Origin: Candidatus Omnitrophota bacterium
GTDB taxonomy: Bacteria; Omnitrophota; Omnitrophia; Omnitrophales; JACROU01
Length of the DNA: 64,000 nucleotides
Direction of reading: 5' to 3'
NCBI GenBank assembly: GCA_029261035.1
Contig: JAJDCD010000005.1
Location: forward strand, 91,516-155,515
In this document: piece by piece, positions 998 through 60,600 of the stretch
Layout of the letters: each line of letters begins with the position of its first letter
Position numbering within the stretch: the first letter of the stretch is position 1
Program-made: the position numbers and the translations under genes
Notes under the pieces: generated by a model
The model's database searches: none
What the model was told of the DNA's origin: nothing
Seen by the model: only the letters and a program-made list of their open reading frames with translations

Positions 998-1119
998 TGT
1001 TTTCTTATAGGGTAATGCACTTCGTACGATCCGTTTGATTGTTCTGGGCCTTTAATCTACTACCTTCTTGTGATATGATTCACCTTCAATATTTGAACTG
1101 AGAAAGAGGATTTTGTGTA

Positions 1120-2229: not shown

Positions 2230-2253
2230 CGAATTAAGTGTAGGGGAATTAGT

Positions 2254-2664: not shown

Positions 2665-2726
2665 CAGAAGTCAGAAGACGGAGGCCAGAAGTCAGATTTA
2701 TGTTAGTCTGAGTTCATTCTTAACGT

Positions 2727-3248: not shown

Positions 3249-3324
3249 AATTAATGTTGCTATCCGCTTGAGTCGAAAAATCTAATGAGAGTTTACTTAA
3301 AACCTTAAATCTTGGTTAAAAGAG

Positions 3325-3690: not shown

Positions 3691-3709
3691 AAAGTGGGGA
3701 GAGAAAGTT

Positions 3710-35800: not shown

Positions 35801-38800
35801 TGGAATGTTACTTACTTTTCCAGAGTTTGAGAACCTTCTTGAAGTAAATAGTGATTTGTTTATTGATTACAGACAAATTGCTAGCTCTGGTAAGGCAAGG
35901 GTGCTACGCATTATGACAAAGGTTTTGGACTATTCAGAACGTTCTCTAACTTATAGAGATCTTCAAGCAATTCTTAAAGAAAAATTCAGTATTTATTTGG
36001 TACCAGCGTATCTTTATAACATCATTACAGAGAAAAATTCATTATCTTATTCTATTGTGAACCATCCAAAATATACTTTCCTTTCAGTGGGTCAACAAGA
36101 AGAAACTCACAAAGACGAAGTCTTTCAAGGGTTTTTAGGTCGCAGGGTGTATGAAGCCCTTTTCGTTACCAATACACGAATTACTACAATTGCTGATATC
36201 AGGGAATTGATTAAGCGAGGATATGTCGTTGGAGAAAGGTCGGATGAAGAAGTAGATCAAGCAATTAAGAATTATATTAATCAATCTATTTTGTTTAGGA
36301 ATGGACAAGGCCAATTTATAGGCCATTCGAACTTACTCGTTGATCTTGATTTTGTTGAACCAACTCGCCCTGGATATGATCAAACCATAACAGAGGCCGA
36401 AGTGGATCTGAGATTTGTGAATGAAGAGGTTGTTGAAGTAGTTACACAGGGACCTTCTGAAGTTAGAAAGATAAAACAAGCAGAAAAAACTAAGCTTGTT
36501 GTAGCTGGTATTTTGGCCATACTGAATGAGGTAGCGGAAGAACAAAAGTATAAGCATGCTGTAGAAAAAAGATTACTTAATGCTAATGATATTGCCGCTC
36601 TTTTAAAAGAACGTTCCCCTGAGCTTTTGCCATCTACGCGAACCCGAAATAATGAAATTTTTCATTATATTTATTCAAATGAGTCTCTTTATCATCATCC
36701 AATGTATGTTAGGCCTTTGAGATCTGGAGAAATTCTAACTGCGGCAGTATCTATTTTAGAGAAAAGTGAAAAAAAATTAGGCTCTTTTGATTTGTGGTTG
36801 GAATTAAGAGATTCTCCAGCTCTTCAAAATATTTCTTTTCGGGACTTTAAAAGAGCTATGAAAAACAGGGATGATCAATTTGATTTGTTTGAAAATTTCA
36901 AACCTTTAAGTGAGTCAGATGAATTAGAAAATGCTTTGCTTTTTATGGATGAATTGACTGCAAATAAAGATTTTTTAGAAATAAAAGGAATGTTAAGAAA
37001 CTTCTTTGATATTGACGCTACACCGGAGTCGATAGTTCGACTGTTAGGGCAAGGTATTGAAATAGATATTGATAACGCATTGAAACAAAGATATTTTGAG
37101 GACTTTATTTCTTTTCAAGTAGGTGGCGGGTATGGGTTAACTTTTGTCGGGGTTTTGAAAGCTTTGGAAGAAAGTTATGGTTGGGAATTGAGAGAAGAAG
37201 AATTGATCAACGTTATTCAAACAAGTTCTAATTTAAGTGTATATAAATATTTCTCGCCACGACTGATTGTTGCTATAGAAGCTAAAAGAATACTAGATAG
37301 GTCGGATAGAAAGATTACTATTGAAGAAATTCATCAACGGATGAAAGAGCGACTTCCTGATGTCAAAAGTATTCATAATGATAATGCTTTAAGCCTTTTA
37401 GACTTTATGATGGAAAGAGACCTTGTTGGTTTATATCACCACCCAAAATTTAAGTCGAAGGATTCTGTAACTATAGAGAAACTGTGGGAAGAATTTAACC
37501 AATTAAATATTTCAGAAATTACAGGAAGTGATTCTGTAAGCATATCCAAGACAAATAAGGATAGAGTTTTGATTGTTACATCTTATAGTCCAAAGCAAGT
37601 AAGACAACGTACTATTTTAGAGGAGTTAGATATTAAATACAACCAGCCTATTCCTGAAAATGCTTGGACTGGATTAAGAAGAGATATGACGGCGGCAGAA
37701 GTATTGAGTGCTATAAAAGAAAAATTTGGAGTTGTTGTTTCCCCCGCAGAATTTAGAAGAATAGCTCTTAGAAAATCTGGTAGTACATCTGACCTGTTAG
37801 CGCATACGCGTTATATGGGTTACATCAACGAAAGAAGGTTAAGGATTAAACAGGTTTTAGACAGGAAAAAAGTAACTCGATTTAGGCTTATGCCTAGTGA
37901 TATTGCGAGAGAAATTTTAGATGAGTTTCAGATATCTGCAACTACAACAGATATTATGAAGGATTTGATTGTTATTGATGGTGGATCTTATATTCATCAT
38001 CCAAATTTTCTACATCAGAGAGAAGTAGTTCAAGCCAAGAAAGATGCTGTAAGAGAGTTGTTGATAGAAATAGCCAATGGAAGAGATGCTGTAGATGTTA
38101 AATTTAGTACTCTTATACCAAAGCTGAAAAATCTATATGGTTTTGAGGTGGCTCTTCGAAGTTTGGAAAAGATTTTTAGAGATAGTAAAAATTACTATGA
38201 TTTTAGAATTAGTCGTCAACAAGGAGATATGACGGCTCATATTCAAAAGTTTAAAACTGATGAGCCTCAAGCGCAACCAACGAAGCCGACTGTTGAAAGA
38301 GCGGAAGCATCTAGTTTGGGTGCAGCAATTAACCGAGATGATGTAATTCGTTTTGAAGAAAGTTACGATGTGACTTTGGAAAGTGTTTTAGATATTATTT
38401 CGGCAACACGGGAAGTATTGGGGCCTGATTTAAGAGACTACTTTCCTTATATTTACAAACAAATGTTAGCAGCACTTGAAAAAGAATCTGAGGTGCAAGT
38501 GCCTGCTTTGGTTGTTGCAGGGGAGGTAAGTCCTGAAGCGGTGCTGGTGCAAGTTAAATCAAATACAACGTTTGTTATTTACTATCAAGACGAAAGTTAT
38601 CCAGAGCAAATTGCTGTTGTAGCAGAAGAATTGATTCAATCAGGATTGATTGCCAGAGAAGATATAGATTCTCATATTCATTTGGTTTCTTTAAGTGATT
38701 TAGGTATTACAGAGCTTGAATTTTATGAACAATTATTTGATGGAGAAAAACTAACAGGTAAGAACCTTGCGCGCATTGCAAATGACGCGGGTATTTACAA

Positions 38801-39116
38801 ATTAAGAGAGCATACAGTATGGTTAGATTCCTCAGAGCGCATTCAAACTGTGATGGAAGATATGCTTGTCCCTTTTGGTCTACCATTTGAAGCAGAGCGC
38901 CGGGATTCTCTTTTAAAAGAGAATCGTGCTTACTATGACATGATTAAATTGACTTTGGCCTCTGCTTTATCTAGAAATCCTAACGCTTTAGTTGAACGGG
39001 GATATGTCATCTTTAAAAATAACCGCTACCAAATGACTGACTCCTTCATCGCTTCATACCTCGAAGGAATCTTGACCCAAGAACGAGTACAAGACCTCAT
39101 TGCCAGCATGGCATAA
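29880..39116 (+). CDS. Giant protein 1 (3078 aa): signal-peptide-like N-terminus, N-domain shared with giants 2 and 3, degenerate internal repeats with a recurrent YHHP-type motif, and a shared C-terminal domain
   Basis: Uninterrupted 9.2-kb ORF. N-domain motifs 'YLIQDAHESLDAQKNI', 'VYFEGG' and 'MGGFHSDAV' are shared with the other two giants. The C-terminal 270 aa are homologous to the ends of giants 2 and 3. Confidence 0.85.
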   Translation: MTLKSFQKSQIFVRSISMLVLSVFLLDSTVQASQLSVLSQQAPLIVAPKYLKLPNIIPSAEVAQVDDYFLNDLSHKPILYLIQDAHESLDAQKNIYQLLKMLVQERGVKKVYFEGGATELDKSFYQFSNKPKLNQDVWEALFESGEMNGVEFYSTQAPEYVRFLGVEDESLYFENVYALKKVFDLQDLTKERLNEVERKIENLKGVHLTGDLKKVWDLQQSFDKKHIDLFQYANEVSRWTEKELRLDMSQVRNQDAWPQLVRLQQIRILEQGIQQSQKALRVELQLIQERNRGEVFQPFSFLWNPQQHALAQGHLRWYFEKCLDLLKKNNQSFSKDYPHLESWIGFHILKDEIKASDLFNEIQVLTNKVIENIEVSNNSKSFLSWLQKWNLFQKLILVKLNKEEWLQILNQEEAYDPVKLLNNPEYFQEPIESLDILHQLYQESLQNYHCVTQRDQTLFNKMIQDITASPSDSVLVMGGFHSDAVKALLKQERQSFVVFNPGIKDLSHTLDYKSLMTRNSISSMKEVSRDQVAVPYEAAFGADSKNIIPYQEAVRQQAQIALAASLGKVKHGDEPWLSAFVAIESLIDENDVIFRLVFEDEFTTEFLKETLRNISDSSQRRLQIDSAHLLKTFLITTYEENHDILAPNFREWLEEFKGLANELYSRIMEISDAENIAGFLEKGLLSQYDSKGTTTDIAKFNGIMDLAGIVQGMNSPVRDIYSASRITNLLSPEVLFSHSVVQGLDFVQDGEEVVIYHEEIDDEDGNILFFIFIIDQTIEQGDVKSTQRRDFLMSTVTGDVIPLAVGHEDIFWTEEDQLLHVLYPPNLEITYDVFLKLDDGGFEPLKAPYTANSLGASAEDGSDLSKQERLKLRRNTLKSVLDDLIEDKTFVTSWGLVGVLVERILEKEPRLAQFVNRKLITNDLKKPGIKDKYTNLRKLINKRKESLSVADISLKTNTITDVRRALMKQILSEIEASNAGLAVGDQVKLTSHQLLEMMIQRKPELKEKIRLDATQNDIARGIIKSSALLTYKKQPKIKEGFDYTAVATMKQILDEWGELPAKGEELLERLWMIQPKGLSNKIEIPAFYELVENIPYIYFHPNYTARRYRTDSRSINDLRRTIRRLLNSNKVLTPFQVWEQLKKKSKFRDLFYVDFNRAFQEEAFPGQFEEMTREQAVNEMVRWILNRGVFQYRMTDLHQSLETVFGMKITLKEVRKAVQTNQELYYHKRFDAGRERRELIKTILVDSEDIWSISYSALFTLLTTDLFDEEGLLSRLSFKKLTKKQLNLDLEILGIDDTNSRLTYVDSGTVKPFDYAETRVFVEDVLTILNGNRNLELQQIFKKLRREFPRNEIYQRLTLQTFRREFTNSPQLVLHRRYLLPRVKYKQDRTLRRELLRVLDEYPRLSRYGLWSRLRQRKGFENIPYYRIRPFFESGSVDDLEIVEHKRFGNENERGYIRTFVIWILDNVPVKRKVVVGDIQQALLYGFDINVTRELIRGSIFHSRDGLHSDNRMDIDQERKEILIDYFSDYNLQTISLSQLQSDLRGLAQYLDFSDEVILADLEAVGLLDRVTLETATLTTDGSEVTVTDPLDSSGNTVRTLGAAPEIELGEGGSETRFRVRDLVLEGKRERPDTASHFGYARMNDEVISARRREMMRILNEAQELEVPIGPRELWDSLRSRPGFELSTLATVFYDLKRIPELGNHPGRRRVDRLTLQEHDDSDESLMRKLTDRVMSEITSWNLFRSNEDKLFLTPEELYDVIIEAHNSLAERLGLEQFVAFISEENINYQYLVERKSFSELETRYQVLAVTLLVDYLNEEGTSPASIEEHFLKLKSIDPDLFSSIESASFFSIWAQFPQLNYHPKIQGNNRSQLGLDEIELRQLQYRISGRLNAAERPLTSLDLQQALRIVNGMEIELSELQEELRSPENRTNFFEHPNFDSGYEQRLMLAEVWAGADGIMSELELYEEFFQRFGMLLTFPEFENLLEVNSDLFIDYRQIASSGKARVLRIMTKVLDYSERSLTYRDLQAILKEKFSIYLVPAYLYNIITEKNSLSYSIVNHPKYTFLSVGQQEETHKDEVFQGFLGRRVYEALFVTNTRITTIADIRELIKRGYVVGERSDEEVDQAIKNYINQSILFRNGQGQFIGHSNLLVDLDFVEPTRPGYDQTITEAEVDLRFVNEEVVEVVTQGPSEVRKIKQAEKTKLVVAGILAILNEVAEEQKYKHAVEKRLLNANDIAALLKERSPELLPSTRTRNNEIFHYIYSNESLYHHPMYVRPLRSGEILTAAVSILEKSEKKLGSFDLWLELRDSPALQNISFRDFKRAMKNRDDQFDLFENFKPLSESDELENALLFMDELTANKDFLEIKGMLRNFFDIDATPESIVRLLGQGIEIDIDNALKQRYFEDFISFQVGGGYGLTFVGVLKALEESYGWELREEELINVIQTSSNLSVYKYFSPRLIVAIEAKRILDRSDRKITIEEIHQRMKERLPDVKSIHNDNALSLLDFMMERDLVGLYHHPKFKSKDSVTIEKLWEEFNQLNISEITGSDSVSISKTNKDRVLIVTSYSPKQVRQRTILEELDIKYNQPIPENAWTGLRRDMTAAEVLSAIKEKFGVVVSPAEFRRIALRKSGSTSDLLAHTRYMGYINERRLRIKQVLDRKKVTRFRLMPSDIAREILDEFQISATTTDIMKDLIVIDGGSYIHHPNFLHQREVVQAKKDAVRELLIEIANGRDAVDVKFSTLIPKLKNLYGFEVALRSLEKIFRDSKNYYDFRISRQQGDMTAHIQKFKTDEPQAQPTKPTVERAEASSLGAAINRDDVIRFEESYDVTLESVLDIISATREVLGPDLRDYFPYIYKQMLAALEKESEVQVPALVVAGEVSPEAVLVQVKSNTTFVIYYQDESYPEQIAVVAEELIQSGLIAREDIDSHIHLVSLSDLGITELEFYEQLFDGEKLTGKNLARIANDAGIYKLREHTVWLDSSERIQTVMEDMLVPFGLPFEAERRDSLLKENRAYYDMIKLTLASALSRNPNALVERGYVIFKNNRYQMTDSFIASYLEGILTQERVQDLIASMA

Positions 39117-39631: not shown

Positions 39632-42600
39632 ATGACGCTTTTGATACGTTTTAAGCAGGCCGTAACCTATTTTGTTTTAGTTTCATTTTTCTTCTCATTT
39701 CTTCCAACAAATTCTTATGCAGATGGTGCAACCATTGGTACAATAAACAGCCTTATGACCACCAATCAATCTATGACACCAACACAACTCAAATTAAGCG
39801 AAGTAGCCATCCCTAATAAGATAGGTGTTATTGAATATACCTTCAAGGGGAACTCTGCGCCTTTATTTTATATTCAGGATGCTCATAATTCATTAGAAGC
39901 TCAAAAAAACATAGCGGCTTTAATTAGTCTTTTGGTGCAAGAGTACGGTGTTAAGACTGTTTTGGTTGAGGGAGTTGAAGGTAAGGTAAATCTGGACACT
40001 TATTTTCAATTTTCAGATTCTAATGTTAAGGAAAAAGTTTCAGACTATTTTCTGGAACACCTTCGTCTGAGCGGAGCTCAATATGCTCATATTAATCGAA
40101 CCCAAGATTTTGATCTTATTGGAATTGATCATTTTAAAACATATAAGAAAAATCTTTCAGCCTATGAAAAAGCTGCAAAAAACCGAGAAGTCATTCAGCA
40201 AGACTTGGCTCGAATTTCTAAAGTTCTTAAGTCTTTAGGGGATCGTTTCTATTCTAAAGAAATTAAGGAATGGTTAAAGTTAAAGTTAAGAGTGGAAGAT
40301 AAAAAGCTTTCGATGGGGGATTACCTGTTTCGTTCGATGAAAATGGGCGATTTTCAATTAGAACAATTTCCAAATTTGAAATTAATTTCAACATACCTCA
40401 AACAAGATCAATTATCTAAAGAAGAAGCAAGCCTTTTAGACAAACAATTGAAACAATTGGATTCGGATGTTTTTTTTAATGAATTGAATCAATTTGAAGA
40501 GGCTTTAATTAATCAGTTTTTGACGGACGCTACAGCTAAACAAGTATTAAGATATCAACGTATCGTTGATTTGTTAAATAAACTGAACCTGATTTCAGTA
40601 ACACCGGAAGAGTATTTATTGTTGAAAGAAGAGTTGAAAGAATTTAACTCTGAAGTTCTGGCTAAATTTTTAGCTGCCCATTTAAAGAAAACAATTTTAG
40701 TAAAAAAAGAATGGGAAAAGCTAATCAAGAACTCCCTTGAGTTTTATGAGTTGGCTCGCGAAAGGGATGTTTTCTTCAAAAGACAACTTGAAGCAATTAA
40801 CACCCCTTCAATTTTGGTTACAGGAGGTTTTCATAAAGAGCCTGTGACTAACTTCTTGAAAAAGAATAAAATTTCTCATGCTGTTTTGGCACCTCAAATT
40901 AGTCGTATCAATAAGAAGTATCAAGAACGATATGATTTCTTAATGTCTGGTCAGTATTATGACTTTGAAACATCTTTTATCAAACAAGACCCTGCCGTAC
41001 AAGCAGCTCAGCAGCAAACCTTAGCTTCATTTGCTCGAGATGGGCGGAATGTTCAAGGGATTGTGAATGAAGCGATTATTCAGTTGTTTCCTAATTCCCA
41101 AGAGGCTCGTGCTGCTAGTTTAGGAAATGATAATGCTCTAAAAATTGAACAAGCTTTGAGTCAGGGAGATATTACAACCGGAACCATGCAGTATCTTTAT
41201 GAGTGGTTGAAGCTTCCTGGAGACTTAACTATTCAAGGGACAAATGTATTAGCACGTATTCAGACATTGATAGATGGTAAAAATTGGAAAGAGCTTAATG
41301 ATGCTTTTTTTCAAGAAGTAAAACCAGGAACGGCAGGTGTTCGTGGAGAGTTGGGGATCGGAAGTAATCGAATTAATGTGGTAACCATTGGTAAGTTTGT
41401 AGAAGGTCATGCTCGCCACTTGGAAGCTGTGTGGGCTGGTAAGGTTGAAGGAAAAGAGATTGATACAAACAAGACAGAAAAGGCTGTAATTTTAGCTTAT
41501 GATCCTAGAGAAGGTTCTTATGACGCCCAAGCTAAAGGGCCAGGTTATTTAGTTAAAATGGCTGCTGCCATTTATGCAGCGCATGGATTTAAAGTTTACG
41601 TGTTTGATGGTCCTGCACCAACGCCAGAGTTGTCCTTTGCAGTTCAAAAGCTGGGGGCATTAGCAGGTGCTGTATTTACAGCAAGCCATAATCCTAAAAC
41701 GGATAATGGGTTTAAACCTTATGACGAAACAGGTCAGCAACTTTTAGGCCCAGATGCTGAAGGTCTAAATCAATATGTGGCTGAGATAAAACAGTTTTCT
41801 GATGTGAAAAAAGCATCTTATGATGAAGCTCTTGAGAAAGGGCAGGTTGAAATTGTAGGGCCTACCATTGATGAACAATATGTAAGTGAGTTGCTTCAGT
41901 ATGGTGTGCACATTAAAGCTGATGGTAAATATGACCTAGAACACATTAATACAGATATTACTGTTGGATTTTCTCCTTTGCATGGTACAGCGGGAAGAAC
42001 AGTTCCTGCTTTATTAGCAGAAAGAGGAATTTCTGCAGAAAATATTTTTAATGTTGAAAGCCAATTAAAACCTGATGGAACATTTCCAACAGCAGCAAAG
42101 CCCAATCCAGAAGAGGATGCGGCGTTAGATTTGTTAAAACAATTGGCAGTTGAAAAGAAAGTTGATGTAGCAGCAGCCAACGATCCTGATGCAGATAGGG
42201 TTGCTGTTTTGGTTCCAACCAGTGATGCTAAAGAAGAGTATTTTCTTCTAAACGGGAATCTACAAATGGCAGTGATTGCGGATTATTTACTGAACCAACT
42301 TTCTAAAAAAGGAACTTTACCTAAAAATTCTGTTTTTTGGAAATCTTTGGTGAGCTCAGATCTTATGATGAAAATAGCAGAAGCTTTTGATATTCCAACT
42401 GTAGAATCCCGAGTTGGTTTTAAATTTGCCGGGGATAAAATGAAGGAATACGAAAAACTAGCCGTTGCTCAATTGTTATTAAATGATGAAGAAGAATTTG
42501 TTGCTATTAAAACAAAAGTTGAAAACGACGGGTACAAGAGTCTAAATCGATCCGAAAGAGAATTGATTCTTTCTCGTTTCTCTCAAGTTCTATTGTTTGG

Positions 42601-45669: not shown

Positions 45670-48600
45670 GTGTCTTTTAGAAAGGTTTTTGCTTATTTAA
45701 TGGGATTTTTGTTGGCACAAAAATATAGGTGTTTAGTAAGGTTTATATCCATAAACTTGGCTTTTATCTTTTTGTTGAATACGGTTGTTGAAGCAGCTCC
45801 GTTGATGCAACATGTGATGACTCCGTCTGTCTTATCCCAATCTGCTATTAATTCTTTTTCTCAACCTCCTTATCTTCCTTTAAGCCCAATTCAAATCAAT
45901 TCCCAGATAGGTTCTGTTCAAGAGAGCTATTTACCCGTAACAAAAAAAGATTCTCCACAAGTTTACTTAATTCAAGATGCTCATGAGAGTTTGGATGCTC
46001 AAGAGAATATTAAGAATATTTTAGAAAAACTTGTTCTAGAGGAAGGTGTGGATACCCTTCTTTTTGAAGGTGGAAGTCTTGATTTTAATTCAAGTATTTA
46101 TCAATTCTCTTCTGATATGGAAATAAATCATCGAATGTGGAAAGAGTTGTTTCGTCAAGGGCACTTGAGCGGGGTGGAGCTTTTTGCTTTAAATCAAAGT
46201 GGTTCCGTTCGATTGAAAGGAATTGAAGATGAATCTATTTATTTTAAAAATCTCAAAACAATTTTAGATACAAATCGACTTTATAAAAAATCTCAAGATG
46301 AGATATTGAGAATAGATCAGCAATATACAATAAAGAAACAAAAAACTTTTTCTGAGCCTTTAAGAAAATTAATAAAAGAAAGAGATGATTTTAGAAAAAA
46401 CAAAAACAATTTTAATCCATATATGCTCTTTTTGATGAAAGAAGCTAAAAAGCGTATAAACCTGGATTTGTCTCAAGCTAAATACCAAAAGCAATACCCT
46501 CAACTTGTGCGTTATTCGAAAATTTCTCAATTTGAAAAAAAGATAAAAGAAAATAGGGATGAAGTGGAGAAGCAACGTATAGAGCTTTTAGAGTTAACTC
46601 AGAATAAGGTGGCTAAGAGTTTGACTAAAGAAAGCTTTCTATTTCTTTTTAATCCAGAGCAACATTATTTAGCTCGAGATCAGTTGCGTTGGTATTTTGA
46701 GTCTTGGTGCGAATGGGCTCAGGCAGAAAATATTGATGTTCAGTTGTACTCTCATTTTATAAATTGGATGGCTTATCATATTCTTAAAAATGAAATGAAA
46801 GGCCCTCAGCTTTTTGATGAATTACAGACTATTGAAATCTTGTTGTTGAAGAATTTGAATCTATCAGAAGAAGAACGGAAGTTGTTGGCCGAAGAGGATG
46901 GGTGGAATTTATGGAATAAGCTCGTTTCTTTAAAGCTCACAAGAGAGGAGTATGAGCGACTTAGAGATACAAATCCTAAGAATGATTTAAAGGGTTTGAA
47001 TTTGTTAACCCAAAAAGCCCTTGAAAACTATGAATGGGTGATCAAAAGAGATGCTGTTTTGTCAGAAAAAGCAATTGAAGCAATAAATTTAAGTAAGTCT
47101 AGTCGAGTTGCTGTCGTTACGGGGGGGTTCCATTCTTACTTTTTAACCCAGAAACTTAAAGAAGAAAAAAAGAGTTATGTTTTAATTGCACCCCGTATTT
47201 CCCAATTAGAGCGTTCTTTGAATTATAAGGATCGAATTCAACAATTATTTTCTTCGACAACAGCATTGGATATTCCAGGAGCTCTTTTGAGCGATCTCTC
47301 CAAACAACGTTTGCTTGTAGCTGCAAGATCTTTGGGAATCCAAGGGGCTAAGAAAAAGGATCTTCCAAGAAAGAGTGGGGCTCAGAGAGAAGATGAAATT
47401 TTTAGAACTCATATTTCTGTGCCTATGCCAGAAATAGAACAGATGCTTTCCTTTCCAGGAAGAATCCAACCATCAATGCAAAATGCTTTGAATGAAACAA
47501 TCAAGCTGATTGTAACGCTGTTTGAAGATGCTTTAATTTCTGTTAATAGAAATGAAGTAGAAAATTTAAAGCGATTTCAAAAATACCCAGGAGGAATTTT
47601 TTATAATCATTTAACGGATGAGCTTAGAGGTGCTATTTCAAATTCTTTGGACTCAACTTTGGAGCGCTATCGACGAGAGGGTATTAGTAGGGAGTTTATT
47701 CATATTGTATTTCGAGTTTATAAGGACCAAGAAAGTAATTATTTTATTGATGTTATTGACGAAGGTGTTGGGGAAACAGCAATTAACAAGACGAATGTTA
47801 AACGTTATTCCGGAGAACGGTATTTAGGAAAGAGAGGAGTTGATCGAGGGAAATCTCTAGAAAGTCAAGTGATGGGTGTTTTTGATGCTCAGCTTTTTGA
47901 ACGAGAAGATGCTCAAGGTGCTGTTTTAGAAATAAAACTCAGCCAGAGAAAAGTCCTTAATCATTTTAAGGAATCAATGGAGGGTTTAAACCTTAGAAGG
48001 GTTAGTAAATACATGGATTCGTATGGGCAGAGTTTGGGTAGGACTAAAGAAGCTTACAATATGCGAATAAATGGTAACCAAGTAAATATACTTGACGCCA
48101 TGATGGAAGGAGAGTTTAAAACAACTTGGCTCACAAGTTTTAAACCTGAAGCATTGCCTAAACTAAAATTACCAGATAAAAAAGAATCGTATTCATTAGA
48201 TGAGGCTTTTATTGTTTTTAGGCAATTAAAGGGAAGTCGATCGTTAACTAAATCTGCATTTAGTGCATGGGTAAAAAAGGTTTTGAGTCGTAGAGCGAGT
48301 TCAAGGATATCTAGAGAATTGCTATCTAATTTGGTGAATACGTTTAGTCTTAGTGAAGCCCGTACTCATTTAGGTGGAGATATGGTAACTGTAAGAGAAA
48401 AAGCTAAGAAAGCAGGTGCTATTTCTGTAGAACATCGCATGTTTATTTCAAGGGATTGGGTTGATCGACAAAGAATTTATCGCTATCAATTGGTTCCGGT
48501 TCATTTGCTAGCAAAAGTAATGGGTGTGAGTAAGAAAGTTCTATTATCTTATTTGGAAGAGCCTAAGAAAAGATTCGGGGACTACTTGTGGGAAGAAGAC

Positions 48601-51600
48601 CTCTTAAAGAAGAAGTCTTTGTTAGAAGTATCAGCAGAGGGAACTAAATATCATATGGATGGGGCTGGTAAAGCATTAATGGTTAGTTTGGTGACAGCGT
48701 ATCAAGTTATTTCAATTTATAGAAAATCATTACGAAACAAAAAGGAGTCTTACTCTGTTGATGAATTGGCAGGATTACTTGGAGTGACAAAAAACATTCT
48801 TGCTCAGGCTATTAAGTCTGGTGAGATTGCAGTGATCCACCTTCCTTTTTTAGGTCCAGAACCTAGAATTTCGATTGTAGATTCAGAGGGAATTCTAAAT
48901 ATTTTTTCAAAAGTAGTAAAAAATTATTCTAAAGTTCTTCGTCCTTATACAAAAAAGAAAATCTCATCTTGGAGAGAATTGATGGCTGTTGTTTCTGGGT
49001 GGGAAACAACCAACTCTTTAAAGGAAAAATGGGGCTTTAAATCTCATAATGGAATTCATCAGATGATGAGTAGGGGTAAAATTAAAGGGTTTCATATTGT
49101 GCACCCTTTAACAGAACAAGGGGTTTGGTATTTTCCTCCTGAAGAAGTAGGTCGAGTTGATGATTTGGAAGAGATGAAACTAGCCAAGGTTTTGAAGATG
49201 GTGAACAAAGGAAGTCGTGCAAAAATTAAGACACGAAGTGAGTTGGAAAAGGTGCTGCACTCTTACTTTTCTTTAGAAAAACTTGAAAAGCGATGGTCTG
49301 TTTCTAATCGAAGTTTGAAAGGAATGATTCAAAGAGGAACGTTAGAGGCAGTTCGATTAGATTTTATTGGGGAACAAAAGAGAGGGTATTTGGTTTCTCC
49401 TAAAGAGGTGAAGAGAATTGAGGGATTGGAACAAAAAAAATTAAAAAAAATTAAGAGATTTGTTTCTAAGTTTTCATCTCAAACAATTAAAACAATTGGT
49501 AAGTTAAGAAAAGTTACGCAGAATTGGATTAAACCAACAACACTTGATGAAAGACTAGGGATTAGAGGGGGTACAGTTCGGCAAGCTATTGATAATGGGT
49601 TGATTCAAGCTGTACGCATGGATTTAATTGCATTTGGTGGTGATAAGTCCGCATATTTAATTCCAACAGCAGAGATTAAAAGATTGGAAGGAAAAGTTAA
49701 AGCTCTAGCTAGAGATATCTCAGCTTTTTCAAAGAGTAAACCTAAAACAATTCAGGATATTAAAACAGCAACTAGAGAGTGGTTGAGAATTGAAGATTTA
49801 GCTAAGGAATTTGATGTTTCATTCGAAACCATTTTTGCGTTAGTGCGATCGGGTGAAATAACAGCGTTTAAATTAGATTTAATTGGTTTAGGGGCATCTA
49901 AAGCTCCGTACGTGATTCCTCCAGAAGAAGTATCGAGAATTCGTGAGGAGCAGAATGAGAAAAAAAGAAAAGTGCTTTCTTTTGTGGAGCAGTATGAAAA
50001 TGTTTCTTCTGAAGATGAAATAACGGTAATGAGGTTAAAAGATATTACGAGTCGTTGGGTCAAGTTAAGGCAATTTAAGACAGAGTTTGGTGTTCATTTG
50101 GCTACAGCGTTTAATTATGTAAGGCAGGGAAAAGTTAATGCAGTTCAAATGGATTTGTTGGGTTATGGAGGAAAGAAAGCATTTTACTTAATCCCACCTC
50201 AAGAAATTGAAAGAATTCGCCAAGAAGATAAACTTAAACTGACTCAAATAATTGATTTTGTTAGAACGTATATTAGTTCTAAAAGAAGAGTTAAGACATG
50301 GGAGGATGTTCAACAAGTTACAAATAGCTGGTTAAAGATTGAGGATTTAGTCAAAGCTGCTTCTGTTAAATTTGCGACAGCTTCAAGGTGGGTTAAAACA
50401 GGCAAGGTAAAAGGCATTAAAATTAAACTGATAGGGAAGAATAACACAAATGGTTATTACATCATTCCACCTCAAGAGATAGATAGGGTTAAAAAAGAAA
50501 GAATGGATCGGAATAATCTAGCGTCTAGTTTAGGCCAGGAATCTACTGCTGTAGTTGATGTTCTATATCAAAAGTATCGATTTCTTTTACCTAAAAGTGT
50601 TCAGAAACAATTTAATTATGAGTTGGTGGCAGGGTGGTATGAAGTTGTTTCATCTGATACAACTGTACTTCCGATGAAAATATTTGATTTTATTCAAAAA
50701 GTATATTCTTTATTAAGTCCCAATGAAGTAAATCAAGTAGCTGTTTTATTAGCGGACTTTCAAAAAGAGATTACAGAAATTTTGACGGCAGATGAGTCAC
50801 TGGAACCGTCTGAAGAAGAAAAAGCACCTCAAGAAGTAGAGTTGGTAAAAGCAGTGGCGTTACAAAAGCTTGTGGAGAAAAGACCTTTAGTAGATGAGAT
50901 CTGGGAAGGAGACAAAAAAGCTCGGATCTCAATGGATCCTGTGTTTTGGGGTGTTCTGCATTCCGATGAAAAGAAAGAATGGTTAAAGAAAATAAAGAAA
51001 ATCCTTACCCGCAATTACTCTTCATTGAAAAAGGGGTTAGATTATGAAGAGCCTATTGGAGGCGGAAAAAAATTTAGGTCTCTAAAGTTAGGTTTGGTAG
51101 ACGCGCCGCTAGTGCTTTCCCACGGGGTTAAAATTCATGCTATGCAACTCAAAGGAGTTGTTTTTGATTCTGGAAATATAACAGATGTTTTTAATATGCA
51201 TCACGCTAAAAGAGAGTGGGGGCAGAAGCTCCCAGATGCTCCTGTCGTACAACCTATTTATCATGAAGATGGAACTATCAGTTACATCCCTCGACAGTGG
51301 TCTCCTAAGGGCGGAATGGTATTAGATGAGGCTAAAAGAGAATTTGAGATGCATCGTTATTTTATGAAAAGTGGAATGCCTGTAAATTACCCCCTTGCTT
51401 ATGGAGAGTTTTTGGGTGAAAAGGAACCATTAGGCAGAAAAATAGGATTTGTTTTATTAGGTCAAAGATTTCAACAAAACTATCGTTTCCATGATGTGCT
51501 GAACCGAATTTTGAATGCGAGGTATGTAGTGCCTATACAGGAGCTTTCAAAAGAGGGTAAAACACCAGAAGAGATCGAGAGTTTATTTAGAGAAACCGAA

Positions 51601-54600
51601 TTAGAGTTATTGGCCAACATTCAATCACATGGTCACTTGCTTCGCACGATTCATACTCCTATGGTCCAAGAAGAGGAACGGTGGGAGGGGGCTTTTCATG
51701 GAAATTTACATCCAGCAAATGTGAGTGTGGATCCTGATTATTTTCTAAATATTCATGATTTAACCCATGCATACAACAAAGAAGAAGTAAGTTCATTGAA
51801 AGAGCAATTTGCAAGACAGTTACTTGATTTTGATGCTGCTTTATCGAGAACTCTAGAAGATAAAGTTTTCATGGACTCGCAGTTACAAGACTTTCATGTA
51901 AGGAAAGGGTTGCCTGTTTCTTGGAAGGGTATGGAGTATGTGAAAACTTTTCTTCTTGGCTATTTTTATGATTTTCCACCAGAAGTTATTGAAAAAGTGG
52001 CTAGAACCATGGTTATGGAGATAGAGGGACACCCCATAACTCGCACCAACAATATTATACAAAAACTAGGAGTGACTCGACTTCCTGCTTATCAACATCC
52101 AGACTTTATTTTCGATCTGATGCGGTATGTTGTTGGAATTAAAAAAGATGGAACACCTCTTTTAGAAGAAGAAAAAGAATCTGCTAAGAAAGAAATAGAA
52201 CAAAAAATTCTTGCCTCCAGTTTAGGTCGTACTAAAGATCATTTTAATATGACCTTCGAAGGACATGCTTTTAATATTTTAGATGAAATGAAGAAGGGCA
52301 ATTTTAGTATGAAGTGGATTTTGAATTTTAAACCAGAACCGCTTACTAGGATACAGGTGCCGGATAAAAGTGTTTATGTGAGTCGAAAAACCGTTTTAGA
52401 AGCAGCAAAAAGAAAAAGATTTGGCTTACCTTTAAGTGCTAAACGGTTAGAACAGTTACTGAAAGCAGGTGCAATTAAGCAGAATGAGAAAGGGGAGTTG
52501 AGTCGTTATGATGCTGAGTCTTTTATAAATGCTTATAGTTTGAGAGAAACGGCTGAGCTTACAGGTCTAAATAGAGATCGATTGTCAGGCTTATCAGGCA
52601 GTAAAGACCGTATGGTTGTTGTGCAGGGAAACTATTATGTTTTCCATGATTGGATTGAAGAAATGCGGGCACGGCATCATCGCCTTGTGCCTGTTTCTCT
52701 TTTATCTGAAATGCTGAACCTAACCCATTCAACATTTCTGTCTAATCTCCGGAATCCCAAAAAATTCTTACGTCCTCATCTATTAAGGCAGTTATTCGAT
52801 GATAGAAAAAATCTGTTAGAGTCTCGATTTACAGGAGAAGAGTACCACTATTTTGGAGATCATTCTCCAACGTTGTCTGTGGATATTTTAACGGCATGGA
52901 GTATCTTTCAATTACTTCAAAGGGTTCCTAATATGGAAACGGCCAGTACGGTGGATGAATTATCTAAAAAACTTTATGTTAATAGAGTTTTTGTGTCAAA
53001 AGCTATCGAAGAAGATCGGGTTGAAGCTACTTTGGTTAGGGGTATGCGCAAAGGAGGTCCTGTTTATTTAATTGATGAAGAGGAGGTAAGGCGCATAGAA
53101 AAAGAATTTAACCAAAAATTAAAATTATTAATAAAGGAAGTTAAAGCTTATGTTGATTCAAAGGTCCCTTTAAAAACATGGGAAGATATTCAAGAAGTTG
53201 TCAAAAATTGGGATACAACAGAAACATTAAAAGAACGATGGAATTTTAAAAGTATTAGTGGTATTCATGAAATGATGAGAAGGGAAGTTTTGAAGGGTGT
53301 TAATGTTGTAAACCCCTTATCCACAGTAGGTGTGAATTATTTTCCTCCACAGGAAGTTGAGAAATTAGATAAAAGAGATAGAAATAAGCTTGATGAAATC
53401 TTGGAATTTATTAACAGATATAGAGGGTCTCCCATTACAACTCGTGCTGAGATTGATGCAGCTGTAAGTAAATGGAGCACTCCTACTTATTTATCTAAAG
53501 TGACTGGAATACCAAGGCAAACAATGACCCGAAGAGTAAAGAAGGGTGCTGTCAAAGGTGTTCTGTTAGATCTTATTGGTTTTAAAAAGAAATTCATGGT
53601 TCCTCCTTCTGAAGCCCAAAAATTTATTCAAGCAAACTCAAAAATAAGTAAAGCCTCAAGTTTAGGAAGATCTAAAGATCATTTTGATGCCACAGTCCTA
53701 GGAGAAGAAGTGAATTTGCTTGATGCCATGAAAGAGGGCGCGTTTAAAGTCCAATGGTTTTTTAGTTTTAAGACTAAGAAGCTTCCTCGAGTTGAAATTC
53801 CAAAAAAACAAAAATATCTTACTAAAAAAGAAGTGTTACAGTTAGTATCTCAAGTAAAAGGAAAAAGAAGAATTGGTCCTTTGCGTTTGAATCAATTAAT
53901 TGAGAAAGAATATATCAAAAGAGATTCTAATGGAAACTTAAATCGAGAGGATGTGTTGTTTTTTCTAAATGCATTTTCATTAAATGAAGCGGCAGCATTC
54001 ATTGGGGTAAACCCAGACAGGCTCGGTAAAATTGCCTTAGAAAATGGATCGGTGAAATATGGTAAAGAGTATTTTGTTCCATATCAATGGGTTGAGCTAT
54101 TAAGAGCCAATTTTCACGATCTTGTTCCTATTCGAATTTTAGCAGAAATGTTAGATATGGAATTTTGGAACCTGGTAAATAAATTAAGAAGCCCTTCAAA
54201 TTATTTTTCCGAAGATATTATAAAAGAGTTTTTCCCTTATCAAGAGACTTTAATTGATAAAAGAATTACAGGAGAAGAGTATCACTTTATCAATGGTAAC
54301 AATGTTTTGGCTGTTGATTTGGCTACGGCATGGATGCTGTTTGTCATATTTAGAATGTTTCCAAATCCCAAGAAAGCGGCCACATTGACTTCGTTGGCTA
54401 ATAAACTTTCTGTGAACAAAACATTGGTATCTACAGCGGTGAAGGAAGGTCGAATTAAAGCGACTCTCGTTTCTGTCTTAAAAAAGGGAGTTCCGTCCTA
54501 CTTGGTTGATGAAGAAGAGTTTGACAGAGTTATTAAGGAATACAGTAAGAAGCTGAAAGACCTTAAAGCTTTGTTAGTTCCATATCTGCGAGGTAAACAA

Positions 54601-57600
54601 CTGAAGACGTGGCAAGATATTCAGGAAGTGGTTCAAGGTTGGGATACTGCAGAATCTTTAAAAGAGAAATGGGGATTTAATCAGGTTGATAGAATCCACA
54701 GAATGGTGAAAAGGGGCCTATTAAAGGGAGTTCATGTTGTGAACCCTCTATCGGTACATGGGAAGTGGTACTTTCCACCTTCTGAAGTGGAAAAGGTAGA
54801 TGTTGTAGATCGAGAAAAACTGCAAGAAGCTTTGGGTTTTGTTAATCGCTATAGAAAAAGGAAAATACGAACTCGAGAAGCGTTAATCAAATCTCTAAAG
54901 AGATGGAGTTCGCCAGTTAAGTTAAGTAAATCAACAGGAATCCCTCGTCAGACCATGACGCGCTTGGTGAGAGATGGGTATGTGGAACATGTAAAGCTAG
55001 ATATATTAGGACAACGGTCTCGTTATGTTATTCCTCCAGAAGCTGCTAAGAGATTTATAGACGAGTTGAATGAAAAAATTATTACCTTTTCAGATAAACA
55101 CTTATCTCCTTATGGTCAAGGTGCTAGAACATATAAACAACTAAAAAAATTGCTTAATAGATGGTATACGATTTCTGAATTAAGTAAAACAACAGGAATT
55201 AACCAAGAAGAAATTGCCTGGAAAGTTGAAATCGGTGAATTAAACTCTGTCAATTTTGATTTCACTCCTCTTCAAGGGAGGATATACATCCCACCTCAAG
55301 AAGCAGAGAAATTAATTCAATCTTCAAGCGTGTCTGCTAATAGTTTAGGTGTTGCAAAAGAGCACTTTGATATTTTTGTTAATGGGAAGAAAGTAAATTT
55401 GATTGATGCGATGGTTGATGGGTCATTTCGTCCAGAATGGATAAGTCGTTTTGTCCCTAAATCTTTACATGAAGTAAGCTTAAAAAATGTTGCTCCATCG
55501 ATTACTTTTGAAAGAGCTGAAGAGTTATCAAAAAGATTGGGGCAAAGAGTTATTACTGTTTACATGCTTTCCGAATTACAAGAGGCGGGTATTATAAGTA
55601 AAGAGTTTGAAGGAATGATTTCAAAAGAAGATCTTCAGTTTTTAATTAATTCCAGAAAATTGGGGGAAGCGGCACGGCTTGTAGAGCTTAATGAGGCTGA
55701 TGTGTGGATGTTTGCTTCCAAACATGGAGCAAAAAGGTTGCGTAGAGAGTATTTCGTTCCTTTGGAGTGGATAGAAGAAGTTATGCTTAGAAAGCACCAT
55801 TTGATTCCAGTTCAGTTATTAGTTGATGAGTTGGGTGTGAACTATGCATCTTTTGTGGATCGTTTAAAGAACCCAAGAAAGCATTTCTCCAAAATTATAG
55901 CTGAGGGCTATTTGGAAGGGAGAGACTCATTGCTAGAACCTTCTCTTAGAGGCAGTCTTGTTCATGGAAATTATCAAAATTTTATGATTGATTTGTCCCT
56001 AGCGTGGAAAGTAGTTCGATTAATTAAGGAAAAATCACTGTCCGACGGATACATCACTTCGGATGTGTTAGCAGAAAGAATAGGCGTTGATGTTAATGTC
56101 ATTCTTTTAGGGATTAGAAATGAACTGATCAAGGTTAAAGAGATTTCTGATATTGCTGGTAGTGGCAAGTACCATTATGCCATTTCTGAGGATGAAGCAG
56201 AAAGAATAGAAAAATTATTTAGTGCTCAGTTGGCTGTATATCAACAGACTTTGGAAGAAAGTGGTTTTATAAAAAGAAAGTTAAACGGATGGAAAGATTT
56301 AAAGAAATTTATTCAGTCATGGCTTGGAACGGAACAGTTGAGACAGCGTTGGGGTTTTACGGGAAATCAAGCAATTATGCAGATGTACCAAAGAGGGAGT
56401 GTTTGGGGATTAGAACTAGCACATCCACTGTCAAGAACAGCAAAAGTCTTATTTCCATTGAAGGAAATTAGGAGCATTGAGAGAAAGGAAAAAATCAAAT
56501 TCGAACTTATTGCTAAATTTATTTCTGAACATGTTGGAGTAGAGGTGAATGAAAAAGCAGAAATGTCAGATGTTTTTGAAGATTGGTATACCGTAAATGA
56601 TTTACTGAAAGCCACAGGCTATAGTCGGAAAAAGGTTATGAGACAAATAAATAACGGGAATATCCCCTCAATCAAAATAGATCTACTAGCTATGCAAAGC
56701 CGTATTGTAATTCCACCCACTGTAGCTCAGCTGTGGATTGGACAACAACAAAAACCACCTTCGACAGCCTCCAGCTTAGGTAGAACAACAGAAGATTTTA
56801 ATATTACTGTGAATGGAACTCCTGTGAATTTACTGGATGCGATGATGGAAGGAACATTTCAAATATCTTATTTACTGCAACTATATCAACCTATGAAAAG
56901 ACAAGGTCATGCTCCTAAGAAAGCTTACTACTCCATTGATGAAGTGCTTGAAATCTTTAAAGAGAAGGGCAGAGGCCCTATAAGGAAGTTACATATAAAT
57001 GAGTTTGTGACAATGAAAAGAAGAAAAAAAGAGGATAAGAGAATTAGGCATGAAGAGCTTCTCTGGTTGCTGAATACGGTACCTTTAAAAGAAGTTACCA
57101 AGTCTTTAGTTGGTCAACATTCGGATTTAAGAGAAAGGGCATTAGAGGGCGGTGCTGTTTTAGTTAAAGATAGAATGTTTGTTCCTGTTGCATGGCTTTC
57201 CCAACAGCAAGAAAAACAGGCTAATTTGGTTTCTGTGGGTTTATTAGCGAAAGTTATGGGTGTTTATCGCACTAAGCTATTTAAGTATATATTGGATCCA
57301 CAAGGGATGTTTGGAGAGGCTATTTTTAATCAATATTTTCAAGACAAAGAATCGTTGTTGGAATTGTCTCAAAACGGAACAGTTTTTCATGGAACACAAA
57401 AGGCACGAATGATTACACTAGAGACAGCTTGGGCAATTGTAAGAATTTATAAAATCTCATTAGAGAGAGCGAAAGGCTCTATTGGTATTGTAGCGTTAGG
57501 CGAAGAGTTGGGTAGAGATCGTTACTTTGTTGACAAAATTATTAGAAGAGGAGAAATAGATGCTTCGTTTATTCCTTTAGTAAGTGACGGCAAATATAAA

Positions 57601-60600
57601 GACAGAATAGTAGCTTCAGAACTTGAAAGAATTAGGGCTTTATACCGTAGATCATTAGCAAGTTATTCAGATGTACTTAAAAAATATGGGGTTGGTCCAT
57701 TTAAAACATGGAGTGAGCTAGAAGAGTTTTTTGAATCATGGTATACCGCTGATGATGTAAGGCGTAGATTTGGTTTTAAAATCAAACGAAGTGTTTATGA
57801 TATGTCTGAACGTGGAGTCTTGACCGGTATTCATGTAGCATCCCCTCTGATGCCACAAGGCCAAATTCGTTTTTTTCCAGTAGAAGTTGATAATCTTTTT
57901 AATAAAGACTTAGAGAGAGTTAATGAGATTTTGGTATTTATTAATCGCTTCAGAAAGCGTCCTATAGGAAATAAATCTCAAATACAAAGAGCAATTCGCG
58001 ATTGGTATAAACTGCCTCAGTTAGAAAAAAAATGGGCTGTCTCAGATGGAACTTTGTTAGATTCAATTAACAAAGGGAGCTTAGAAGCTATTAATATTGG
58101 CTTGATAGGAATGAAAGAACAAGGCTACTGGGTTCCAAGGCAAGAAGTACAGCGAATTGAAAAAGAACAGAAAAAAAGAAGAGAAGAGATTCTGAAATTT
58201 GTTTCTCAATATACAGATGAATCGATTAATACTACAAAACAACTTAAAAAAGCAACTCGTAAATGGTTCGCTGTTGAAGGAGCTGCAAAGAGGTTGGGGG
58301 TAAAGAAATCTCTGATAAAAAGTATGATTAAACGAAAAACCATTAGAAGTGTGAAGATGGATTTGCTTGGTTATGGAGGGGGTAATACGTTGATGATGAT
58401 CCCTCCTCAAGAGATAGGAAGAATCGAAAGGGAAGAAAAAGAAAAGTTAGATAGAATTATAGCTGATATTTCTCAATTTACTGAGAAACCTTTAATGACA
58501 GTAGAAGATGTTTTGAGAGCAACTCAAAGTTGGGTTAAAGCAGAAGAGTTTGCTAAAGAATTTGGTGTGAATACGGCCCATGTTTTAGCTTTAATTAGAT
58601 CTAATAAAATTCGTGCAGTTGAAATGAATTTATTGAAAGTTCGTGGAAATAAAATGTTTTATTTGATTCCTCTTTCTGAAGTGGAGCGTTTTAAATTAGA
58701 TCAAAAAAATCAGCTTGCTGAAATTATTCCACAAGTACGTGAATATACGGATGCCGAGATTGACACTATTGAAGGTTTGAAAAAAGCAACATTAGATTGG
58801 AGCAGTACGGGGGACTTTTCAAGAGAGTTTGGTTTTCCTGCAGCATCAGTGACTCGTATGATTAAGGCTAACAATATTAAGGCTATACGATTTGATTTGT
58901 TTGGATTTGGAGGAAAAAATAGATTGTATTTAATTCCCCCACAAGAAGTTGCCAGTATAAGGCAAGAACAAGAAAGGAGATTTAAAGAGGTTCAGAATTA
59001 CTTGCTTCATAATTTTAATATCGAAATTATGACATTGACTGATTTAGAAGAAGTAACTCAAGATTGGTTAGGGAAGGAAGATGTTAGGAGAGCTTTAAAA
59101 ATAAGTCAGGCAACATTTTATTCTCATGTGAAGGATAGAAAAGTTAAATCCGTATTTATTGACTTGTTGGGCTACAAAAGAAGAGCTGGTTATTATGTGT
59201 CTCCATATGAAGTGGAAAGGTGGGGGGGAGAGAGTTTAGATGAAGGGGCTTCAAAAAGGAAAGGTGAAAATATAAAATTAAAAGCAAAAAAAATTAAATC
59301 TAAAGCTTCTAGTTTGGGTAGAGAGATAGCGCTTTTGGTTGCGGAAGAGTATCCTTATAATCAGTTGGTGCTTATACTTGATCGTGTAGACAGTTCATCT
59401 GATTATGCTGAGTTTGAGATTCGTTCTAAGAAACAAAAAATTGGAGAAGGAAGTTTTTTTAAGGGAGATGATCATTGGAATTTAGTCCACTTTGAATTGG
59501 GTTCGGAGTATAACTACCAGGAGGAAGGTAAGGAGGTTATAAAGTGGTTTGCTCGATACCTTCAGAATATGTTTCCAGGGAGTAGAAACCCTTTAAGGTT
59601 TGGTTGGGTGTATAACCCTGAAATGTTGAGTTTGGCTCACTCTGTTTTTGAACCAGACTCCATGGAAATAATTTTTAAAAAACCTGGACCGTGGTATTCC
59701 ATGGCTGATCCTAGTTTTAACTTGTTTTACTCTGCAGGTCCTTTACGTATTTATGATGATGTCCCTCTTTCTACAAAAGAAATTAAAGTTATTAAACAAG
59801 GGAGTTTTTACGTTCCTGTGAGCTATCCTCAAGAGGTGAAAAATGTCGTAGTAAGCAAATATCACGTATCAGCACGATATAAAAGTACAGGTAACTTATT
59901 GAGAAAGATTCAGTTTGAGAGACCCTTTTCTATTAAAGGAAAGATACGGAAATCTCTATTGTCTTCCGCACGTTCTCTAGGGGATGAGCAGGATGAGTAT
60001 GGATTAACTCGAAAGCAAAAAGAAGCAGTGCATCATTTCTTGTTTCCTAAAGACTTATCAGGTGAAGCAATATTAAAACAGGTTTTGATGTTACTTATCC
60101 CATATATCCTTTTAGGGGGATTGGTGGCTGCTGTGATGAGTCGTGAGAAAAAGTCAGATAATCAAGCGGTTCCTCAATCAACATCAGAAGGGAAAAGTTT
60201 AGGTGGGACACGGCCTTTGTCTGCGGTAGATTATTTTGCTCAACTGGAACAAGAGCTGTCTGAAGCTTGGCAAGCTTGGGATCATCAAAGCTCGATGATG
60301 GATATGGGTTTTGTCGAATCTGCTTTAGAGCAAAAAACAAATTATTACGCATTGATGGGTCTTATAGCAAATTCGTTTATGCATTTTTCAACTCCTACAT
60401 CAAAATTAGAAGAAGATGACGTAGTTCTTTATATTGCGCCAAATCAAAATGGTAACACAGGTATTTACCGTGTTTTAAGTGTATCTGGAATGCAAGTTCA
60501 ACTGATGAATGTAGCAAACAAAACAATTTTAGTAGCGGAGACGAAGAAAATAAGAAGGATTGATTTATCAAAACCTAGAATTATGTCTCAGGTTGAAGAA

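Follow-up and report, generated by a model that had tools for sequence, protein, structure and literature searches.

We analysed a 64,000-nucleotide stretch of a Candidatus Omnitrophota bacterium genome (assembly GCA_029261035.1, contig JAJDCD010000005.1, positions 91,516 to 155,515 of the forward strand; this whole stretch is the window, and its own coordinates are used throughout) and, within it, a 561-amino-acid (aa) module at 50530-52212 of the third of three giant open reading frames (ORF 3, 45670-63333, translated as 5,887 aa). An earlier note, made from the DNA letters, had described this module as kinase-like with Asn in place of the catalytic Asp. We found that window 50881-52212 almost certainly encodes, as judged from the predicted structure, a bilobal protein-kinase-like (PKL) fold, with a β-rich N-lobe that includes helix αC and a helical C-lobe, and that it belongs to a family of such domains. 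By sequence, the module is part of a rare, unnamed family without a Pfam or NCBIfam model, present in Bacteria and Archaea and in both giant and ordinary-sized proteins; it is an unannotated, family-level variant of the known PKL superfamily. The best overall explanation of the data, to which we assign a probability of about 0.6, is that the domain would bind ATP·Mg and carry out non-canonical chemistry.

The module, its borders and its predicted functional elements are listed below. Core residue i corresponds to ORF 3 residue 1737+i, and fractions are column counts over the family alignment (20 members, or 18 for G60 and R66).

45670-63333, + strand: giant ORF 3 carrying the module (ORF list; 5,887 aa; signal-peptide-like N-terminus)
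50521-50535, + strand: ASSLG junction motif upstream of the module (translation)
50536-50880, + strand: N-terminal stretch of the module, ~115 aa, common to the copy in the giant protein P0002
50881-52212, + strand: protein-kinase-like core, 444 aa (AlphaFold2, Foldseek, profile against PDB kinases)
51046-51093, + strand: β-hairpin EEPIGGGKKFRSLKLG where a Gly-rich loop would be expected (model strands 57-59 and 67-71; conserved G60 and R66)
51127-51156, + strand: strand motif VKIHAMQLKG (translation)
51151-51153, + strand: Lys91 (QLKG), candidate equivalent of PKA K72 (end of strand 87-91; K in 19/20, R in 1/20)
51328-51360, + strand: helix motif EAKREFEMHRY (translation)
51340-51342, + strand: Glu154 (REFEM), candidate αC glutamate, PKA E91 (helix 148-163; E in 18/20)
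51391-51393, + strand: Pro171 after Glu154, candidate P104 (P in 19/20)
51694-51729, + strand: catalytic-loop equivalent FHGNLHPANVSV (hidden Markov model (HMM) alignment to 'HRDLHPGNILL' of mitogen-activated protein kinases (MAPKs); H273 = H164)
51703-51705, + strand: N275 at the catalytic-Asp position (HMM alignment to MAPKs, column counts)
51718-51720, + strand: N280, N171 equivalent (HMM alignment; N in 15 and Q in 5 members)
51745-51771, + strand: metal-site equivalent LNIHDLTHA, aligned to DFG
51757-51759, + strand: Asp293, DFG-Asp equivalent (D in 20/20)
52213-52227, + strand: ASSLG junction motif downstream of the module (translation)

All five motifs quoted in the earlier note are present in the translation, with coordinates checked. 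The downstream ASSLG border at 52213 was exact, while the upstream one lies at 50521-50535, 6 nucleotides away from the proposed 50527.

The evidence for the fold comes from prediction with an alignment of homologues. AlphaFold2 was uninformative on the single sequence (predicted local distance difference test, pLDDT, 35.6). Using the 20-row family alignment A1 (19 homologous segments), the 444-aa core was modelled with a pLDDT of 92.4 and a predicted TM-score (pTM) of 0.91. A Foldseek comparison of this model to the PDB yielded 119 matches at an expectation value (E) <=1e-3, and the best 50 of the 119 are all protein-kinase-like folds, including a Toxoplasma rhoptry kinase domain, BMPR2, AAK1, EphA3, MAPKs, FGFR2, IRAK1/3/4 (IRAK3 with its pseudokinase domain) and PknA, together with mycobacterial maltokinase and SelO. 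SelO (6eac_C) was found at rank 37 (E = 3.7e-4) and has the best query TM-score (0.35) among these top 50. Compared to the viral-protein library BFVD, the named top matches were almost all Ser/Thr kinases. A fold unrelated to the PKL superfamily was not obtained, and the proposal of a kinase fold is upheld.

The order of elements in the model follows subdomains I-III, except for a 55-residue insertion between strand β3 and helix αC. EEPIGGGKKFRSLKLG forms the β-hairpin (57-59, 67-71), 'AMQLK' forms a strand with Lys91 as its last residue, and DEAKREFEMHRYFMKS is the helix 148-163 with Glu154. The assignment of EEPIGGGKKFRSLKLG to subdomain I follows from order and topology, with no residue-level alignment. 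The motif that had been read as a Gly-rich loop at this hairpin is indeed present, but its 'GGGKK' run is peculiar to the ORF 3 sequence and the family keeps a single Gly (G60), with the invariant R66 after it. In the C-lobe, a long helix (306-341) begins about 13 residues past D293, and there is no sign of an activation segment of the eukaryotic protein kinase (ePK) type.

The residue register was obtained from the family profile, and both the profile and the fold evidence are independent of the motifs picked by eye. Searching PDB sequences with the A1 profile gave 283 matches at E<=10, and all 60 matches listed are kinases; MAPKs are the best (E = 4.3e-4), and the list further includes PknA, GCN2 and amicoumacin kinase. 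The four alignments shown cover αE, the catalytic loop and DFG (subdomains VIb and VII), with the family's 'lrelHdaGfihgsphlgNfsv…tihDLd' opposite the kinases' 'LHVLHEAGVVHRDLHPGNILL…ITICDFN'. In PKA numbering, the resulting register is H258 = H158, H273 = H164, position 275 = D166, N280 = N171 and D293 = D184, which places the module's 'FHGNLHPAN…IHDL' on the kinase HRDLxxxN and DFG motifs. Asp293 of the metal-site-like 'LNIHDLTHA' singled out in the earlier note is thus aligned to the D of DFG, and the spacing of Asn275, Asn280 (+5) and Asp293 (+18) equals that of PKA D166, N171 and D184. The motif alignment expected from that note was therefore found by profile for subdomains VIb and VII; for subdomains I-III it was not found by sequence, and the order fits in the model only. 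The composite pattern H[GR][DN]x4N x10-16 [HIVLC]D[FLY], which joins the catalytic loop to the metal site, is present a single time in ORFs 1-3 (10,872 aa in total), compared to a mean of 0.001 in 2,000 shuffles.

Across the family, nine of the ten PKL key residues set out by Kannan et al. 2007 (PMC1821047) have conserved counterparts, four of them mapped by profile alignment and five, as candidates, by model position: G52 to G60, K72 to K91, E91 to E154, P104 to P171, H158 to H258, H164 to H273, N171 to N/Q280, D184 to D293 and, probably, D220 to D316. The last residue lies within the long helix of the model, whereas in the HMM alignment to p38 it faces the APE region. Alongside the counts listed above, conservation is high at G60 (16/18), R66 (18/18), G92 (19/20), P142 (20/20), G144 (19/20), H258 (16/20), H273 (15/20), N/Q280 (20/20 taken together), D316 (16/20 D and 2 E), Y361 (18/20) and F362 (19/20). 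Overall identity among members is only ~18-25%, yet K91, E154, N/Q280 and D293 are kept at 90-100%.

The only key residue absent is the general-base Asp (D166), and it is absent in every member. Position 275 holds N in 7, S in 7, F in 4, Y in 1 and T in 1 of the 20, and never D or E; 'HGN' occurs in the copies of the three giant proteins and in a few other members. Because the D166 equivalent is missing family-wide, Asn275 is not a recent inactivating substitution. The Asp-to-Asn exchange first noticed in the module does align to D166, but it is no local replacement within an active family.

We identified the family by an exhaustive scan. The single module had no relevant match in Pfam, NCBIfam or PDB sequences and no relative in species-representative genomes; a word-indexed homologue search returned nothing with the module alone and only P0015 with its profile. 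A phmmer scan over 1.84 billion cluster representatives (E<=1e-3) found 19 proteins or clusters: P0001 (5,877 aa), which is the ORF 3 protein itself in the public protein collection, two other giants and sixteen smaller proteins (344-1,087 aa). P0002 (4,626 aa) contains a full-length copy with 36% identity (E = 6e-104, matching module residues 9-535). P0003 (5,181 aa), annotated as from a Candidatus Omnitrophota metagenome-assembled genome (MAG), contains a copy (E = 1.5e-47) whose match begins at residue 123; there, an ASLG motif sits immediately ahead of the kinase-like core, and the ~115-aa N-terminal stretch is therefore missing. In ORF 3, this stretch has a helical appearance only in the low-confidence single-sequence model. 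The module had been called unique, and it is: with the family HMM it is the sole copy in ORFs 1-3, and BLAST gave no paralogue. A second, degenerate kinase-like copy at ORF 3 residues ~3490-3590, suggested by weak signals in BLAST and phmmer, received no support from the family HMM, and this candidate was rejected.

Many members consist of one domain and measure about 340-450 aa, and a Pfam scan of ten smaller homologues found no Pfam domain in any of them. The stand-alone member P0015 (428 aa) is encoded at L001 3051-4337 in an Altiarchaeota MAG (GCA_028712125.1, contig JAQTQS010000067.1), next to PPS_PS, TP_methylase and PRAI genes in that Altiarchaeota-labelled contig. Consequently, the family probably extends beyond Bacteria and beyond giant proteins. 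P0005 and P0007 adjoin or lie inside giant genes, and P0010 is found in an ordinary bacterial neighbourhood; no gene neighbourhood common to the stand-alone homologues was seen, as these neighbourhoods differ among themselves. P0004 (aa 373-560) and P0018 (aa 821-1004) have in common an extra C-terminal domain of ~190 aa (28% identity, E = 9e-15), and P0004 as a whole has no Pfam match. This domain was considered as a link between P0004/P0018 and the giants and was rejected: it is shared between these two proteins and has no similarity to ORFs 1-3.

What could such a domain do? We infer ATP·Mg binding because K, E, N/Q and D are strictly kept at such low identity in both Bacteria and Archaea, and by these residues nucleotide binding is likely to be retained. 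The predicted Lys-Glu pair, the Asn/Gln and the DFG-type Asp would hold the nucleotide and Mg2+. A conventional hydroxyl phosphotransferase is unlikely because there is no general base. Several features would point toward catalysis all the same: the strict nucleotide and metal ligands, the further near-invariant residues (R66, P142, G144 and Y361-F362) and the stand-alone, single-domain members. The best precedent would be a SelO-like reaction in which AMP is transferred from a flipped ATP; a second option would be transfer of the phosphoryl group to an acceptor for which no base is required. The invariant R66 and a basic residue at position 89 might, speculatively, play the role of SelO's ATP-holding arginines. 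The earlier reading of the module as a pseudokinase or an atypical transferase is supported, with the D166 position non-acidic in 20/20 members and the nucleotide and metal ligands kept. Between these, our preference for non-canonical catalysis over an inert pseudokinase or a weak kinase is tentative; catalysis without a general base is favoured because the active sites of non-catalytic pseudokinases are usually relaxed (bioRxiv 10.64898/2026.09.18.752743) and because many members here are single-domain proteins.

The SelO comparison is close in conservation pattern. In the SelO family, HRD is replaced by HGV, QGN or HGS while K72, E91, N171 and D184 are kept (PMC3281104), and SelO, in which extra arginines hold ATP in a flipped orientation, acts as an AMPylase (PMC8097203). 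Like SelO/YdiU (PF02696; P. syringae SelO, PDB 6EAC), the module family has a PKL fold that has lost the HRD Asp family-wide (here HGN, HxS or HxF), keeps the candidate β3 Lys and αC Glu, the Asn171 equivalent and the DFG Asp, has extra N-lobe insertions and an extra conserved Arg, and occurs in Bacteria and Archaea. By its sequence, however, the module domain is not a SelO family member: the SelO signatures GxxGxG, D[YF]G and the C-terminal Cxx[CU] are absent, and the ~440-aa domain has a different N-terminal extension. AMPylation by the module domain is something that we hypothesize by analogy.

Several observations weigh against an ATP·Mg-binding domain with non-canonical chemistry. PF02696 is unmatched by all 20 members even at E<=10, so the analogy to SelO rests on the conservation pattern and not on demonstrated kinship. 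A profile of the N-lobe alone found no kinase in the PDB, and the N-lobe residue equivalences are consequently topological. Both a K91-E154 salt bridge and the geometry of the pocket are putative, and the Gln at position 280 in 5/20 members is unusual for an N171 position. TM-scores to solved kinases are low (0.20-0.35) and root-mean-square deviations high across the best 50 Foldseek PDB matches; the domain is therefore very divergent. The differing neighbourhoods of stand-alone members offer no substrate hint. Finally, if the giant protein is exported, its ATP supply is in question unless it acts inside another cell.

The strongest competing explanation is a non-catalytic pseudokinase, in which the fold, perhaps with bound nucleotide, would do no more than provide the giant protein with a scaffold or a switch that depends on nucleotide. 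The JAK JH2 pseudokinase has the same HGN catalytic loop, and such Asp-to-Asn domains still bind ATP and are at most weakly active. The loss of the catalytic Asp in 20/20 members agrees with this explanation, as do the HRN of HER3/ErbB3 (PMC3281104) and the IRAK3 pseudokinase domain among the Foldseek matches. JAK JH2 and HER3 also have Asn at the catalytic-base position, in a catalytic loop that can still be recognised, together with a kept Lys, Asn and DFG-type Asp. They arose recently from active ePK families, however, and possess activation loops, whereas here a whole, deeply diverged prokaryotic family lacks the Asp and the residue varies among N, S, T, F and Y. Moreover, the relaxation usual for pseudokinase active sites is not seen: the ligand residues are nearly invariant across Bacteria and Archaea, and many members consist of one ~340-450-aa domain, with nothing obvious to scaffold. 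We therefore regard a non-catalytic role as rather unlikely.

A genuine phosphotransferase without a general base, acting on small molecules or as a protein kinase of low activity, would need an acceptor that requires no deprotonation or the help of another residue such as H277. The long helix so soon after D293, without an ePK-type activation segment, is what is seen in small-molecule and atypical kinases, and the loop 'H-x-x-[PL]-H-x-G-N' resembles the HGDLHPGN of APH/CAK-type kinases. Amicoumacin kinase (by profile) and mycobacterial maltokinase (by Foldseek) are among the matches, related giants carry the metabolic enzyme modules PGM/PMM, UDPGP and AA_kinase, and kinase activity can survive without D166 (ErbB3; PMC3281104). 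Yet the alignment has no conserved acidic residue that could replace D166, H277 is kept in 15/20 members only, and no conserved metabolic neighbourhood was seen. Sub-threshold Pfam matches of individual members were found to Pkinase (3e-4), PK_Tyr_Ser-Thr (6e-4), Kdo (1.2e-3) and ABC1 (0.25). Pkinase (PF00069) had no match with the module sequence, the one member's E = 3e-4 being under the gathering threshold, and no member matched the APH, Choline_kinase or Fructosamin_kin models at E<=10. The Kdo/WaaP (PF06293), RIO, APH/CAK and UbiB/ABC1 families are likewise compact PKL domains without an activation loop; they also show 'G-x-P-V-x-x-P' behind an αC motif, and their catalytic loop is of the HGDLHxGN type. 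In contrast to the module family, all of them keep the catalytic Asp, and none of their models scores above threshold on any member; the N-terminal β-hairpin and two-helix extension and the 55-residue β3-αC insertion are specific to the module family. Base-free phosphoryl transfer is, on this balance, improbable.

Chance resemblance of a module that is not kinase-like is effectively refuted: the single sequence without database matches, its poor single-sequence model and the low TM-scores would allow it, but the model built from the alignment has high confidence scores, nearly all matches from two independent structure libraries are kinases, the 60/60 listed of the 283 PDB profile matches are kinases with four alignments in catalytic-loop register, and the composite motif is expected 0.001 times in the giant proteins.

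ORF 3 and the other giant ORFs of the window have a modular layout. The window (37% G+C) contains three giant + strand ORFs behind a housekeeping run of ispG, thiolase, acyl-CoA dehydrogenase, glucan phosphorylase, amtB, prpD and citrate synthase. Its citrate synthase has its closest match, at 62% identity, in an Omnitrophota MAG. Besides ORF 3 and the two borders of the module, the features are as follows.

29880-39116, + strand: ORF 1, 3,078 aa
39632-45355, + strand: ORF 2, 1,907 aa
53653-53667, 56767-56781 and 59305-59319, + strand: further ASSLG motifs in ORF 3 (motif scan)
ORF 1 aa 2810 and ORF 2 aa 1712, + strand: ASSLG (motif scan)
ORF 1 aa 564, ORF 2 aa 495 and 1204, and ORF 3 aa 5159, + strand: ASLG (motif scan)

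ORFs 1, 2 and 3 and P0002 have an N-terminal domain of ~500 aa in common. A C-terminal domain of ~290 aa is common to ORF 1 (38300-39116), ORF 3 (62450-63333) and P0002; the ORF 3 and P0002 versions are 51% identical. No Pfam model matches this domain, its last residues read …ASMA or …ATMA, and in ORF 1 and P0002 it directly follows ASSLG. The kinase-like module itself pairs ORF 3 residues 1618-2209 with P0002 residues 2372-2956, and several ORF 3 stretches of ~500 aa (aa ~745-4550, window ~47900-59300) each match the single P0002 region 3776-4347. ORF 3 has several matches to HTH_17 (excisionase-type helix-turn-helix). In several cases, a helix-turn-helix-like C-terminal 'IPP…' segment is followed by a basic linker and ASSLG. 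The presence of many DNA-binding-type domains alongside a signal-peptide-like start in ORF 3 is odd. Neither half of ORF 3 matches any PDB sequence, and its neighbouring modules consequently give no functional context.

Because the neighbours of the kinase-like module differ among ORF 3, P0002, P0003 and P0020, it is a portable cassette. Other cassettes in these proteins are PGM/PMM, UDPGP, amino-acid kinase and SNF2 helicase. ORF 2 fuses a complete phosphoglucomutase/phosphomannomutase (domains I-IV, aa 564-1170) to a UDP-glucose pyrophosphorylase-like segment (aa 1434-1529). The AS(S)LG motif recurs at module borders, with no conservation of the flanking sequence, and far exceeds expectation (6 observed vs 0.15 expected in ORF 3, 9 vs 0.12 in P0002 and 11 vs 0.19 in P0003). 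In ORF 2 it flanks PGM/PMM and UDPGP, in P0002 it flanks AA_kinase, and the kinase-like module is enclosed by it in both ORF 3 and P0003. AS(S)LG is a candidate site of processing or cleavage; the giants would then be polyproteins.

The N-termini of ORFs 1-3 (29880-29990, 39632-39740 and 45670-45810) each have a basic stretch, ~19 hydrophobic residues and an AxA-like site (…VQA|SQ, …SYA|DG and …VEA|AP, respectively), and the same signal-peptide-like start is found in P0002 and in five small homologues (P0006, P0008, P0011, P0018 and P0019). These starts suggest export or membrane anchoring. The most far-reaching version of our proposal, a new kinase-fold enzyme family that would use bound nucleotide for non-phosphoryl transfer (AMPylation or other nucleotidylation), in the manner of SelO, SidJ and NiRAN, and in the giants travel as a cargo cassette of an exported polyprotein cut at AS(S)LG, is improbable at present.

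Giant proteins of Omnitrophota ('Archaeovorins' and related) have been described as very long ORFs that tile unrelated enzyme modules (bioRxiv 10.1101/2023.11.21.568195, 10.64898/2026.06.07.730766), and proteolytic processing has been proposed for them with the cleavage points stated to be unknown (bioRxiv 10.1101/2023.11.21.568195). The window ORFs resemble these giants in their enzyme modules (PGM/PMM, kinases, methyltransferases), in an N-terminal hydrophobic segment and in the proposed cleavage into several products. They differ in length (1.9-5.9 thousand aa vs >30 thousand aa). Pfam scans of the window giants detected no C39 or S8 peptidase domain. Keyword searches of the two preprints gave no helix-turn-helix or linker terms; AS(S)LG and the kinase-like family were not sought by name in them.

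Time and again, kinase-fold families that lack the Asp and keep their nucleotide and metal ligands have proved to catalyse reactions that were not foreseen: AMPylation by SelO, glutamylation by SidJ and RNAylation by NiRAN. The module family has the same signature and no name. Novel PKL families are found regularly; the conservation signature seen here has a record of predicting unusual chemistry, and the members of ~340-450 aa are suited to biochemistry. For the Omnitrophota protein itself, the module provides the first recognisable fold for part of a 5,887-aa protein that otherwise has helix-turn-helix Pfam matches only. Its modules are portable cassettes bounded by a short conserved junction motif, which makes it directly testable whether giant bacterial proteins are processed into pieces.

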